The position numbers are program-made. Shown here in pieces: positions 18,001-27,000 of a stretch of DNA of 64,000 nucleotides (position 1 is its first letter; each line of letters begins with the position of its first letter). The DNA comes from Escherichia coli (GTDB lineage: Bacteria > Pseudomonadota > Gammaproteobacteria > Enterobacterales > Enterobacteriaceae), in assembly GCF_041248615.1 (NCBI RefSeq), contig NZ_CP158426.1. One strand, given 5' to 3'.

Positions 18001-21000
18001 GATGCCGACCATGTAACGTTGACTTCTGATCTAAAAGGCGCTCGCCCGACAGGCAGTGAAACGGACAAGCGTCTTTACTCGGGTGATAAATTAACCGTAA
18101 GTTGGGAAATTGGTGATACCGAAGGCGACGTGGATCTTGGGGTATTGGGCGATAACGCGAAAACTATCGATACTATCCGCTGGATGAGCTACAAGGACGC
18201 TCAGGGTAACGATCCAAAAGAGCTGGTAACGAAGGTGACCAGTTACACCCTTACCGATGCCGACCGTGGTCGTTATATCGGTATTGAAATTACGCCAACC
18301 ACGCAGACCGGTACGCCAAACGTCGGGAATGCGCTGCATCTTTATGACATCTCCACTGCCAGCGGCGGCGGAAGCGACAGCGACAACGTTGCGCCAGGGC
18401 CGGTGGTTAACCAGAACCTGAAAGTCGCCATCTTTGTTGATGGTACCAGTATCAACCTTATCAACGGCAGCACGCCAATCGAACTTGGCAAAACCTACGT
18501 GGCCAAACTGTACTCGGATGAGAACAAAAACGGCAAGTTTGATGCGGGTACCGATGCTGACGTTACCGCCAATTATGATTTCCGTTGGGTACTTTCTGGG
18601 AGTAGCCAACAGCTCGGCACCTCGGGTGGTATCGTTAACTCAAGCTTCGATAATAACAATCTGGTCATCCCGAAAACCAACGAAGACGCCAGAACCAACC
18701 TTAACGGCCCTGCGCGCGATGGTAAAGAAGCTCTTACCATCCCGACCAACGGCGACGGGGTACAGGGGTACAAACTTCACATTATTTACAAACACAAATA
18801 ACGCGTACTCAGCAGCATTCCCGCAAGGGAATGCTGTTTCCGCATATTTTGCTTAATCCCGGATTAAGCAAAATATGTTGATGCGACAAGCGTCCGTTTA
18901 ACAACCGGTGGAGTTTCTGTCATGTCCCTGACCCTGAATAAAATCCTTGTGTTATGCGCATTGCTGATAAGCGCAATGCTGCCTGGGGGGTCATGGGCAG
19001 AATCTGCATGGCAAGACTCTTCAGATACGGTCGGCGAATTTAACGGTACCGTGCCCACCGCCGACAGTGCCAGCATACCCGTCTACCAGGGCAGTGTCTT
19101 TCTGGATCCTGCAAAGACGCATGAGGTAGCGTTTACCGCTAAACCGAGTGAATTCAGCGCGGATATTAGCGTCTCTAAATTGCTCGTCACCAATCCGCAA
19201 GACAGAGAAGGCGATATCATTTCCACCCCACGTTGGGAAAACCAAACGCCACCGACAGTATCTTTAGTTTGGGCGGATGCCGCGACGCCGGACACCTTAC
19301 TGGACCCACAGCCAGTCGCAGATCGCTCATTTTGCGCACAGGGCCTTGCCGGGCGTTCGCTGATCGCCTGGGCGCAGCCAGACCCCCAGCAGACCATGCC
19401 GCTGTTATATCTACTTACCTCGACGGGCTATCCCTATGAAAGTGTTCTGACGCTCGCCGATCAGAAAGTGACGCTGAAGATTGCGCCCGCGCAGGGTGAC
19501 CTTATTTCCGTCAGCGCCGCGGGCTATGACGAATCCTCCGGTGCGGCGAAAACGACGGTTGGCGGCAGTATCACGTTAACGGTCACCACCAAAGATTGCG
19601 TCGGTAATGTTGTGGGGAATATTCCTTTTGTTATCAAACGCAAAGATGCTGAAAACCGCCAGGGTGTGGTGAACAATACTGCGCCGGTAAAACTGGGCAC
19701 GACCGAATTAACCACCACCGCGACGGAATATCGTGGTACTACCGATGCGAATGGTGTTGCCACGGTTACGGTCACCCAGGCCAACGGCCTTGGTGTAAAA
19801 ACGCCGTTGGTCGCGAGCCTCGCGGGTATTGCTCAGGCCAGTGAAACGGCAGTGATCTTTACCGTCCTCACCAGCCCGGATGTCCCGCAGGCTACAATGT
19901 GGGGTCATATGCCCGATACGCTGAAGGCCCGTGATTACACTTTTAGTCGACCAAAACTGGCGGCGGAAGTCGATAATGAAGACGGTACGGTTAACGATCA
20001 CAATGAAACCTGGTCCACCTTTACCTGGAGCGGCGCGGATAAACATTGCGACATTTTGCCCGGAATGCGTCAGTTCGGTGCGCTGGCGACGGTGGTGCCA
20101 ACGTCAGTGCAGGATGTGGCTGGTTGGCCGATGCAGGGTAATTTCTACTGGTCATCACTGGCGGGGATGAGTGGCCAGCACCATGCGGCGGATGTTTCGA
20201 ACCGCAGCGAAGCGCAAAAACCGGACGATACGACGTTTATTGTGAGCTGTGTCGATAAAGAAGCGCCCGATGTTGAACCGAAGCTGGTACTGACGCCGGG
20301 CAGTTATGATTCGACGATAAAAGCGATGAAAGTAAAGGTGGGGGAAGAGGCTTCTTTACGCCTGACGATTACCGATAGCAAGAACAACGATCAGCCGTTG
20401 GCTTACTACTACTTTTCGCTGCATCTGGATGACGGTGTTAACCGTAAGAATCAAACTGACGCTGCGTGGGAGACGCACCCGGTACAAATTGATGGTGGCA
20501 GTAACGTTCGCAAAGTTGACGCCCATACCTATGAAGGGATCACTGATGCTAACGGAGAGGCCTCTCTGACGCTGACCCAGCCAGGCGGCGTGGGGGTGAA
20601 AACACACATCACCGCGAAAATGCGCAGTGATTTTAACGCCTCGGATGAGAAAGACGTTATTTTTACGGTGATCACCAGCCCTGATTCCGACAAAGCGCGG
20701 ATGTGGGGACATATGTTAGGCATTATTGAAGCGAATAATATCTTTAAACGCCCACGGCTGGCGGATGAAACCGACAACGAACTGGGAGCAGTGCGGGAAA
20801 ATAACGAAGACTGGGCGCTGTTTGATCAGAATAGCAGTATGCAGGCTGAGTGTGGTTTAGGTCATATTCCGAGCCAAAGCTCATTGCACAGTTTGTTTGC
20901 CGCACATCCAGCCAATGTCATCGGCACCGAATATGGCTGGCCAACGTTGCAAAAAGCGTATCTTAGTGCGGTGGAAGAGACGTCGCACGCGTCGGTGAAC

Positions 21001-24000: not shown

Positions 24001-27000
24001 AAATTACCCGTGATGTTTACCGTGATAACCAGCCCGGATACCCCCCTGGCAAGTTACTGGGGGCATATGGCGGAAACGTTCACTACGCGTTCTGGTACTG
24101 CCTTCAAACGCCCCTTACTCTCTGCTGAAAGATCGTCGGGCCAGTCGTTTATAGAAGACAATGAAGAGTGGGCCGTGTTGAGATCGGCAACAAAGGGGGA
24201 TATCGATAAAAGCGGGTGCGATGTACATTATCAACCACTGTTAAGCGAACTACAGGCATTGTACGACGAACACCCAAGTCGTGCGATAAAGACCGATCTG
24301 GGTATTCCGGTAAATAGCTACTGGTGGGCTTACGACATGGTGGCATATGCGGGTAACTGGTACGATCAATATATTTATCTGTTAAATGGATCAAGTGGAA
24401 GAGCGTCTTCAACCACCTCGGCATTAATGCTGTGCCTGGTAAACCCTCATCCAGAGGCGGCTTCTATTGAAATGACCTCAACGGCGGAGGATGCAACGAA
24501 AACGGCCAGCAATGATGGCAGGCCCAGCGCAACAGCGAAGAAGGGAGAGGTTATCCCGATGACTGTTACGGTGCGAGATAGCGCAGGCAATCCACTGCCA
24601 GGTGCCAGCTTTAACCTTAAACGAGGAACTGCGCTGAACCGCGCTAAAGCTGCGTACGATGCCTCTGCAGATGATCTTACCATCATACCTGTGGAACCTA
24701 CTGGGGTAACGTCAATCTTGTATGGGGATGGGACGCAGGCTCTTCTGAAGACAGGGAGCGATGGTAAAGCTACGTTTGAGGTCAGCCAGAATAGCAGTTA
24801 TGGGCTGTCAACGCCGCTCAGCGCAGAACTCATGCGCGATACCTCGAAAAGCGTCACGCTGGATGTCATTTTCACGGTGATAACCAGCCCGGATTCGCCA
24901 AAAGCGAAATACTGGGGCCATATGCCGGAAACGTTTACCAGTTCGGCAGGCGTGACCTTCAAGCGCCCATTACTGGCAGCGGAAGCGACTACGGGGAGCT
25001 CGGTAAACGGTAATAATGAGACATGGTCATATATATATAGTACTCAAAAAGCGACGGCAGATTGTTCGCTGGAATATCAACCGCGCCTCAGCGAATTGCA
25101 GGGGTTATATGACGATCACCCAAACGGAGCGTTAACGAAAGATCTGGGGTTGCCGATAGCGTCAGGAAACTGGTGGATTTATGAATTACTTAACTCCAAT
25201 GGTAGCTCCTGGTATTACCAGGTCTTTAACCTAAGCACGGGACGAGCATCATCCGCACTCTCTCCGGTTGCTCTAATGCTCTGCCTGGCACAGCCTCACT
25301 CTAAGCCGTCAAGCGTTACCCTGACTTCAGTAGCATTTGATGAGACGAAAACCGCCAGTAACGGCGGCACACCTTCGGCATCGGCGAAAAAGGGCGAGAC
25401 AATCCCGTTAGTCGTGACAGTAAAAGACCAAAATGGCAACCTGGTGAGTGGTGAGGGCGTGACGCTTCAGCGGGCGCAGGCGAAAAGTCGTTCAGGAATT
25501 AGGCCCTCATCGTCGGCAGATGATCTTATTGTAGATGTCGTCACACCGACAGCAGCCCGTATTTCCTTTGCTCAGGATACGGCAAAATGGCTTGGTTTTA
25601 CCGGCAGTGATGGCACAGTGACGTTCAATGTTACGCAAAACGCCACCACCGGCCTGGCAACGCTGTTTACGGTCTCGCTTGCACAAGATCCGCAGATCAC
25701 GTCAAACCTGGACCTGATATTTACCGTGGTCACCAGCCCTGACGCCCAGGATGCCGACTACTGGGGTCATATGCCAGAAACGGTGACAGCGGCAAATGGA
25801 ACCGTCTTTGAACGACCGAAATTGTGGAAGGAGCTGCCATCGACCTCCGGGGTAAATAAAACCAATAACAATAATGAGGACTGGCCCTATTTTTCGTCAA
25901 CCACTAAAGCAAATTCCAGCCTCAGCCCTTGTGAGGAAGCCCGGCAACCGTTGCTCAGCGATATGAAGTCACTGTATCAACGTTATCCCAATAACACCCT
26001 TACGACGGAAACTGGCTGGTCAGTTTATTATTACTGGTGGGCGCAGGATAAGACTACAGATGGTAAAAATCAGTCGCTCAATATGAAAGATGGCACAACG
26101 ACATTGAATGGTAATGCCGCTTATCAGGCGTGTCTGGTGTCTGCGCGCGCAACGGTTTCCAGCGTCACACTGACCTCAACAGCGTTTGATGCTGACAGCC
26201 AGGCGGCGAAAGTGAAAAAAGGCGAAGCCATGCCCGTTACCGTGACGGTGAAAGATAGCGCCGGGAATACGGTGCCGAATGTGGAATTTACTTTGAAACG
26301 CGGTGAGGCATCGCCGCGTAACGCTGGGGCAACGTTGTATGGTGATGTGGTGGCGATGGACGATCTCATCGTTCAGCCGTTATCTGGTTCGGCTGTTACG
26401 CTGAGTGAAAGCGGTAATACCATTAGTGGCATGACAGGCGCGGATGGGACGGCAAGTTTTACGCTCCGCCAGGATAATACCCCTGGTTATAAAACGCCAC
26501 TGACGGTTACTCTGGCTAATTACGCTTCCGCGACAGACACGCTGGACGCTATTTTTACGGTACCAACCAGCCCGAATGTTTCCTCGGCGCACTTTTGGGG
26601 ACATATGGCAGACACGGTAGTGGTGAATAGTAAATCGCTACATCGACCGTTGTTAACGACAGAATTGCCGTCCGGGGCTAATCCCGTATCCTCACCGATT
26701 ATTAACTACGAAAACTGGGCTTCTGCACATATCATTGATGCCAGTAAATGGGATATTGCAAGGCAGTGTGGCAGCATAGAAAATGCACCGACATACAATG
26801 AATTAGAGTTGTTGCACACTGTTTTTAATTCACTGGGATGGCCGTCTTCACCAAGTTTTCCTTATTTGTCCTCTCAACAGTGTGGGATGGACGAAGGCAC
26901 TGGAGCACAGGATTGTAGTATCACGCTAATGAATAAACCGGGTCTGGTGACCTGCTTCCAGTAACCAGCATGGCGCATCTGGCGTGGCCTGGGAGCCAGT

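Follow-up and report, generated by a model that had tools for sequence, protein, structure and literature searches.

The 8-kb gene at positions 18922..26964 of a 64,000-nucleotide (nt) stretch of Escherichia coli DNA (NCBI RefSeq assembly GCF_041248615.1, contig NZ_CP158426.1; the whole stretch is called the window below) is the already catalogued E. coli ratA of the sinH-sinI-ratA ('ila', CS54-like) island. Its product is probably a giant adhesin built from nine modules of one BIg21 and one InvE_AD domain each, with a motif that would lock the junctions between these domains and with export that would depend on SinH and SinI. This reading combines the identity, architecture, fold and conservation pattern of the protein and the linkage of its gene, all computed here, with a rigidity role of the motif, multivalent binding to the host and a SinH/SinI export route, which we infer. 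The repeat unit and its motif were already known and the gene was already annotated; the finding is real but ordinary. What is new is modest: the distinction between fixed units (1-4 and 9) and a cassette (5-8), purifying selection, an N-terminal domain that matches nothing, and two covarying hairpins.

An earlier note on this DNA, made by inspection of the sequence, had described one uninterrupted 8-kb open reading frame (ORF) for a RatA-like protein, and both parts of that description were borne out. An ORF listing gives a single frame, 18922..26964 on the plus strand, which starts with ATG, encodes 2680 amino acids (aa) and has zero internal stops across its 8043 nt. The protein matches the NCBIfam equivalog model NF011844 ("RatA-like protein") over its full length (aa 1-2680 on model positions 1-2683) with 5381 bits, the curated whole-protein cut-off being 3870 bits. 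The models for Salmonella RatA (NF011843) and RatB (NF011842) matched only the first ~1450 residues of the window protein, with scores below their cut-offs. The gene is 100 % identical to that of NZ_LT599825 (isolate NRZ14408; WP_085004913.1) and carries the RefSeq label "adhesion domain-containing protein". RefSeq annotation and NCBIfam give the gene order in the window as der - yfgJ (a zinc-ribbon gene) - sinH - sinI - ratA - xseA (minus strand) - guaBA; the order sinH-sinI-ratA between yfgJ and xseA is that of the ila/CS54-like island. In extraintestinal pathogenic E. coli this island is known as the ila cluster, which is considered to derive from the CS54 island of Salmonella (PMC12928451; PMC3739510).

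Using the 8043-nt gene as a query, homologous DNA was found in 1736 of 5426 complete E. coli genomes, in every case on the chromosome; in 936 genomes at least 80 % of the query was covered by the match. At least three classes of allele could be distinguished: that of the window, with 98-100 % identity (378 genomes), one of ~86 % (the 536/Nissle type) and one of ~75 % (the ST131 type). Comparison of repeat number across strains, which had been suggested earlier, showed that the three alleles translated all have nine units, with lengths of 2680-2693 aa and no interruption.

The tetrapeptide WGHM occurs exactly nine times in RatA, at aa 327, 595, 863, 1145, 1429, 1713, 1998, 2281 and 2559 (nt 19900, 20704, 21508, 22354, 23206, 24058, 24913, 25762 and 26596), where 0.0008 occurrences are predicted from the composition of the protein. 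Each lies 14 aa downstream of its own F-T-(V/T)-x-T-S-P-(D/N) sequence, the latter starting at nt 19858, 20662, 21466, 22312, 23164, 24016, 24871, 25720 and 26554. Successive motifs are 268, 268, 282, 284, 284, 285, 283 and 278 aa apart, in keeping with the nine copies of near-constant spacing, and with the approximate coordinates, given before. The F-T-V-x-T-S-P-(D/N) form that had been ascribed to every unit is found in eight of them; the third copy reads FTTLTSPD. W, G, H and M themselves are invariant in all nine copies. The units share 27-46 % of their residues with one another and 39-53 % of the nucleotides in codon-threaded DNA alignments, the longest exact word common to their DNA is 18 nt, and Tandem Repeats Finder detected no array in the ratA DNA, the repeats being visible at the protein level only. 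On account of these low identities, short shared words and the missing DNA array, the copies are judged old and diverged, as the earlier note had proposed.

Pfam resolves the protein into nine BIg21 domains (PF05688, formerly DUF824) that alternate strictly with nine InvE_AD domains (PF05689, "Adhesion domain", formerly DUF823), with E-values of 1e-14 to 1e-39, so the alternation of motifs with immunoglobulin (Ig)-like segments is real. The idea that the repeat unit was undescribed is wrong, since the family has a name and a solved structure. The refutation named in the earlier note, a well-characterised family with known function, therefore applies by half: to the family and its structure, but not to a ligand or biochemical function. 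An exhaustive profile search found the adhesion domain in only 307 of 1.84 billion representative proteins. These show two architectures: Rat-type proteins, with a signal peptide, an N-terminal domain (N-domain) and 3-9 units, and LysM/beta-barrel inverse autotransporters, usually with one adhesion domain at the extreme C-terminus. The parts of the window protein are as follows; percentages and synonymous divergence (dS) refer to the allele of uropathogenic E. coli (UPEC) 536.

18922..18999, plus strand: Sec-type signal peptide, aa 1-26, predicted cleavage SWA|E, from inspection of the translation.
19000..19539, plus strand: Rat-type N-domain, aa 27-206, conserved and beta-rich.
19561..20352, plus strand: unit 1, BIg21 (aa 214-318) and InvE_AD (aa 319 to ~445), from Pfam; positional orthologue in all Rat-type proteins examined.
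20353..21138, plus strand: unit 2, BIg21 and InvE_AD, from Pfam; orthologous position in most Rat-type proteins examined, not in the four-unit protein P0063.
21139..21975, plus strand: unit 3, BIg21 and InvE_AD with the motif FTTLTSPD, from Pfam; positional orthologues in the longer Rat-type proteins, none in the short P0063 and P0065.
21976..22839, plus strand: unit 4, BIg21 and InvE_AD, the modelled unit, with RGD at aa 1045-1047.
22840..23703, plus strand: unit 5, start of the variable middle cassette, from Pfam; 66-75 % aa identity to UPEC 536 with dS ~1.4-1.8, and outside E. coli merely a weaker positional match.
23704..24543, plus strand: unit 6, variable cassette, from Pfam and divergence data.
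24544..25392, plus strand: unit 7, variable cassette, from Pfam and divergence data.
25393..26238, plus strand: unit 8, variable cassette, from Pfam and divergence data.
26239..26961, plus strand: unit 9, terminal BIg21 and InvE_AD with four Cys, from Pfam; 96-99 % identical to the UPEC 536 allele.

The signal peptide noticed earlier is recognisable by inspection from its n/h/c pattern (K7, a hydrophobic core I8-L20 and S-W-A at -3 to -1), a pattern that homologues share. Cys12 lies outside any lipobox, and lipoprotein anchoring was rejected for that reason. The product of ratA would be a Sec-exported, non-fimbrial giant adhesin whose mature chain consists of the N-domain and nine modules, without a membrane anchor or a C-terminal tail. 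When aligned with 10 diverged Rat-type proteins, the N-domain (aa 27 to ~206) has a mean column identity of 65 % and 45 invariant columns, and it is more conserved among these proteins than the repeats are. It has no match in Pfam, and its structure model matches nothing in the PDB.

Upstream of ratA, the following features bear on how the protein may leave the cell.

13004..17769, plus strand: sinH, an intimin-like inverse autotransporter, in two fragments (RefSeq; NCBIfam match of the C-terminal fragment).
~14226-16819: ISEc12, an insertion sequence (IS) of the IS21 family inside sinH, with istA at 14431-15972 and istB at ~15987-16733, delimited by terminal inverted repeats.
17824..18801, plus strand: sinI, encoding a SinI family autotransporter-associated protein (NCBIfam NF040711, 336 bits against a cut-off of 165; RefSeq).
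18811-18837 and 18842-18878, plus strand: two tandem RNA hairpins in the sinI-ratA spacer (fold z-score -6.6).

The sinH/ISEc12 junction occurs in one of the 5426 complete E. coli genomes, and the insertion is therefore considered recent and strain-specific. The first hairpin is GC-rich and is followed by UUUCC, and the second has a 17-bp AU-rich stem. Both recur in five diverged loci, where 10 of 29 pairs have changed in a compensatory way, and an Rfam search with the spacer hairpins returned no family. They may act in termination, attenuation or the stability of the transcript and so uncouple ratA from sinHI.

No IAT_beta barrel (PF11924) was found in RatA by Pfam; the barrel is in the neighbouring SinH. 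Heinz et al. 2016 (PMC4943183), drawing an analogy to ZirT/ZirS/ZirU, suggested that Rat-like proteins are substrates of the inverse autotransporter encoded with them. Passage of RatA through the outer membrane would, by the same analogy, depend on SinH, together with SinI, in a two-partner manner like that of ZirT/ZirS. The alternative is that RatA is independent of SinH and SinI, that it takes another release route or is retained in the periplasm or envelope, and that the linkage reflects a co-inherited adhesin island. Such independence is rather unlikely, although it is the alternative with the best support. It has to contend with the constant order of the gene trio, sinH-sinI-rat being retained in four diverged loci from other sources, one of which lies elsewhere on the chromosome, between PolyA_pol/HD-domain (cca-like) and CYTH/CHAD-domain (ygiF-like) genes. 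A locus, L004, which seemed to lack sinH, was set aside as a counterexample because its contig ends inside sinH. Nearly equal numbers of E. coli genomes carry sinH (1700) and ratA (1736 of 5426), and this, too, speaks against independence. SinI matches the ZirU family and resembles the C-terminus of SinH, as in the experimentally supported ZirTSU system. Finally, on 16 contigs a SinH-type IAT_beta barrel is naturally fused in frame to the middle of a Rat adhesion domain followed by four units (protein P0062; locus L010, 8001-12851, and also L011), after which comes a second Rat-type gene of 1711 aa. The fusion looks like the outcome of a deletion across the 3' end of sinH, sinI and the 5' end of ratA, and it may be taken as a 'Rosetta-stone' hint that Rat units can be passengers of an inverse autotransporter.

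Several points weigh against export by SinH and fit the alternative just described. The window strain has an intact ratA despite its disrupted sinH, which equally fits a SinH-independent function, although the insertion is recent and, being confined to a single genome, says little about selection. The barrel lumen of an inverse autotransporter is filled by its own linker, which makes a role as translocase mechanistically awkward (PMC4943183). The N-domain has no detectable relation to SinI or SinH and, as said, no match in the PDB, so that a docking role for it is a guess. Co-transcription of sinH with sinI has been reported in a review (PMC12525524) and two strong hairpins, conserved and in one case terminator-like, separate sinI from ratA; both observations are against or neutral to SinH export, and together they suggest that ratA is expressed separately. 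In the literature consulted for this analysis, no experiment shows where RatA is located, what it binds or that it depends on SinH. Export with the help of SinH and SinI nevertheless remains the preferred reading.

The earlier note had further regarded WGHM as a conserved functional site, and here the analysis points the other way. The sequence FTVxTSPDxxxAxxWGHM is present in Rat-type proteins and in single-copy LysM/beta-barrel inverse autotransporters alike, and is thus a property of the family. The InvE_AD model of Pfam begins at the P of TSPD, and the motif therefore constitutes the first 18 positions of the adhesion domain. Among 188 full-length domains it is the stretch of lowest entropy (1.18 bits over the first 20 columns, compared with 2.5-3.0 for the rest) within a signature that reads FTvxTSPD-A-WGHM ... 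RPxLxxE ... nnExW ... C ... P ... LxxLy ... GWP ... C. The G is conserved in 100 %, the M in 99 % and the H in 91 % of these domains, and R32, E38 and E51 in 99-100 %. A structure prediction of a single unit, which had been recommended earlier, was made with AlphaFold2 for Ig4-AD4-Ig5 (AD, adhesion domain). It reached a predicted local distance difference test score (pLDDT) of 87 and a predicted template modelling score of 0.77, with pLDDT at or above 90 over both junctions. In this model the last Ig strand is continued by the FTVxTSP residues, and the first strand of the adhesion domain consists of GHM.

TSPD...WGHM most likely forms a rigid junction between the Ig-like and adhesion domains together with the N-terminal core of the latter, a role more likely structural than catalytic. 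A structural role is preferred over an active site because the motif is at the Ig-AD boundary and because its His is an Asn in InvE and is replaced in ~9 % of the family members. It is deduced from position, pLDDT and substitutions. The opposing view, that the motif is a metal-binding, catalytic or ligand-binding site with an invariant His and Arg/Glu, present nine times for multivalency, is improbable. It draws on the invariance of W, G, H and M in the nine copies, on the near-complete conservation of R32, E38 and E51, and on a motif conservation that exceeds that of the rest of the domain. Yet the crystallised InvE reads WGNM, and in 17 of 238 motifs, including terminal domains in several Rat-type proteins, the His gives way to Y, N, R, D, A, V or F. 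In the model, moreover, the motif is continuous with the last Ig strand, at a domain boundary, with pLDDT above 90 within the junction between the domains. No enzyme family was matched by sequence and none ranks near InvE by fold, and C-type-lectin-like domains normally bind through their C-terminal loops, which are variable here. With a structural motif, FTVxTSPD...WGHM would lock every Ig-AD junction and give rise to a stiff rod several tens of nm long, while contacts with a ligand would come from the C-terminal two thirds of each adhesion domain, a variable part rich in indels. This part is more likely than the motif to be the ligand surface.

When a single RatA unit was compared with the PDB sequences, one solved structure was found, 5N40, the InvE of Yersinia pseudotuberculosis (phmmer E = 1e-22); in this alignment the segment FNVITSPDSAQASMWGNM pairs with the RatA motif. 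A profile of the nine adhesion domains retrieved 5N40 (E = 6e-34) and nothing else from the PDB sequences, with intimin, invasin and eukaryotic lectins out of reach by sequence. By fold, the adhesion domain of RatA is equivalent to the C-terminal domain of InvE, whereas a fold search beyond InvE gave only weak FGE/CLec-like matches. The assignment of a C-type-lectin-like fold to the adhesion domains of RatA is accordingly tentative beyond InvE. EPN and WND occur nowhere in RatA and its sole QPD falls in the N-domain (aa 152), so none is in an adhesion domain; the absence of EPN and WND was the reason for rejecting canonical Ca2+-dependent C-type lectin activity. Each of AD1-8 contains two Cys at conserved columns and AD9 contains four; in the family (188 domains) these columns are C69 (96 %) and C140 (85 %). 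The conserved pair would most likely close each adhesion domain by one predicted disulfide. The lack of EPN/WND, the two Cys in each of AD1-8 and the grouping of DUF823 with CLec2 (see below) are consistent with the C-type-lectin-like assignment of InvE.

In AD9 (26596-26961) the Cys are at aa 2616, 2654, 2665 and 2678; this domain matches only positions 1-106 of the Pfam model, and RatA ends 2 aa past the final Cys, as do most homologues. The RGD at aa 1045-1047 (22054-22062) is in a BIg21 strand of unit 4, 'LKRGDGYTR', and RGDGY(T/D)R is retained in the equivalent unit of many diverged Rat-type proteins. It may be a simple reflection of the BIg21 consensus 'KRxDxxNR'.

The units have individual identities. 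When Rat-type proteins from other taxa are compared with the window protein, their units 1-4 and their last unit each have an unambiguous best match, one to one, in units 1-4 and 9; for unit 9, the last unit is the orthologue by position in almost every complete Rat-type protein examined. The middle units of these proteins number 0-4 and have no clear orthologue among the window units. Judged by sequence, units 1-4 and 9 are thus fixed, individually conserved positions. The comparison with the UPEC 536 allele divides along the same lines.

N-domain to AD4: 93-100 % aa identity, dS 0.13.
Ig5 to AD8 (units 5-8, 22840-26238): 66-75 % aa identity, dS 1.27.
Ig9 to AD9: 96-99 % aa identity, dS 0.09.

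Within E. coli, the allele in the window has a mosaic structure; relative to the ST131 allele, dS is saturated throughout. The nonsynonymous to synonymous rate ratio (omega) is 0.1-0.2 in each domain of RatA, in agreement with the earlier suggestion that the array is under selection. Because dS is high and omega is 0.1-0.2, units 5-8 are an old recombining cassette under purifying selection and not fast-evolving filler. The units of the cassette would vary in number between species and be swapped between E. coli lineages by recombination. That the frame might be a decaying relic or an annotation artefact without current function is hardly credible: rat genes are often pseudogenes in host-adapted Salmonella (PMC8011750), many database entries of homologues are fragments (at most 505 aa in a word-indexed search) and the adjacent sinH is inactivated in the window strain, but the intact 8-kb frame, the 936 genomes in which at least 80 % of the query is covered, the three alleles without interruption, the retention of nine units in alleles with saturated synonymous sites and the omega of 0.1-0.2 per domain all contradict it, and a pseudogene reading was rejected because of the intact frame and the low omega.

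Further downstream, the short spacer between the convergent ratA and xseA contains a palindrome at ~26975-27025 that is similar to repetitive extragenic palindromic (REP) elements (GCCGGATGCGATGCTGGCGCATCTTATGG). A lambdoid-looking prophage extends from ~31867 onward, directly downstream of guaA (RefSeq annotation of the identical genome), with genes for a tyrosine integrase, a RecT-family recombinase, a PD-(D/E)XK nuclease-like protein, a PerC-family regulator and an MT-A70 methyltransferase.

Of the products of the ila island, RatA is the largest by a wide margin; the island is enriched in extraintestinal pathogenic E. coli, and work on its SinH as a vaccine antigen is under way (PMC12525524). 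In murine urinary tract infection, UPEC is attenuated by deletions in the ila cluster (PMC12928451, citing Shea 2022), and in Salmonella, RatB is required for optimal caecal colonisation (PMC8011750, citing Kingsley 2003). The analysis mainly removes a false lead, as both the repeat and the motif had a catalogue entry and a structural explanation beforehand. Worth further work are the N-domain, the possible export of RatA by SinH, the ligand, and the division into fixed units 1-4 and 9 and an exchangeable cassette of units 5-8. As a naturally occurring knockout, the sinH::ISEc12 strain can serve as a control for export of RatA through SinH.

Among known systems, the RatA-like protein of E. coli (NF011844/PRK15316), encoded in the ila island of extraintestinal pathogenic strains such as CFT073, 536 and LF82, is the same protein at the same locus, der-yfgJ-sinH-sinI-ratA-xseA; the differences are allelic only, apart from the interruption of sinH by ISEc12 in the window. 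RatA (NF011843, 1860 aa) and RatB (NF011842, 2435 aa) of the Salmonella CS54 island have the same N-domain, BIg21/InvE_AD units and island context as the window protein but fewer middle units; window units 1-4 are colinear with both models, with 2088-2260 bits over aa ~8-1480. The CS54 island of Salmonella has the additional genes ratB and shdA (PMC3739510). In the ZirT-ZirS-ZirU system of Salmonella, an inverse-autotransporter gene is likewise followed by genes for barrel-less, Ig-like exoproteins. RatA exceeds ZirS and ZirU in size about tenfold, and it carries an unrelated N-domain of its own.

Compared with intimin and invasin (type Ve), RatA lacks an IAT_beta barrel and LysM and has nine copies of the lectin-like domain instead of one. 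InvE has the layout of a classical inverse autotransporter, a barrel of its own and one adhesion domain at the tip, and the single-copy, barrel-bearing homologues found in the profile search are built in the same way. Its adhesion domain reportedly has a C-type-lectin-like fold without Ca2+ or carbohydrate motifs, and the protein is said to be devoid of features for binding Tir or integrins. RatA differs from InvE (5N40) in its nine internal or terminal copies of the adhesion domain, in the missing barrel, in its N-domain and in the motif residue, which is H in RatA and N in InvE. Weak, mixed matches tie DUF823 (InvE_AD) to the CLec2 C-type-lectin scaffold of the variable proteins of diversity-generating retroelements (DGRs; DUF1566/DUF823/Fib_succ_major), the C-terminal part of which tolerates massive variation (PMC5758913). 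A similar gradient of entropy runs along the adhesion domain. The annotated locus shows neither a reverse transcriptase nor a template repeat close to ratA, and with no retroelement nearby and saturated dS, DGR-type diversification of RatA was rejected. In contrast to DGR systems, the variation of RatA stems from old alleles and recombination (dS > 1) and not from mutagenic retrohoming.

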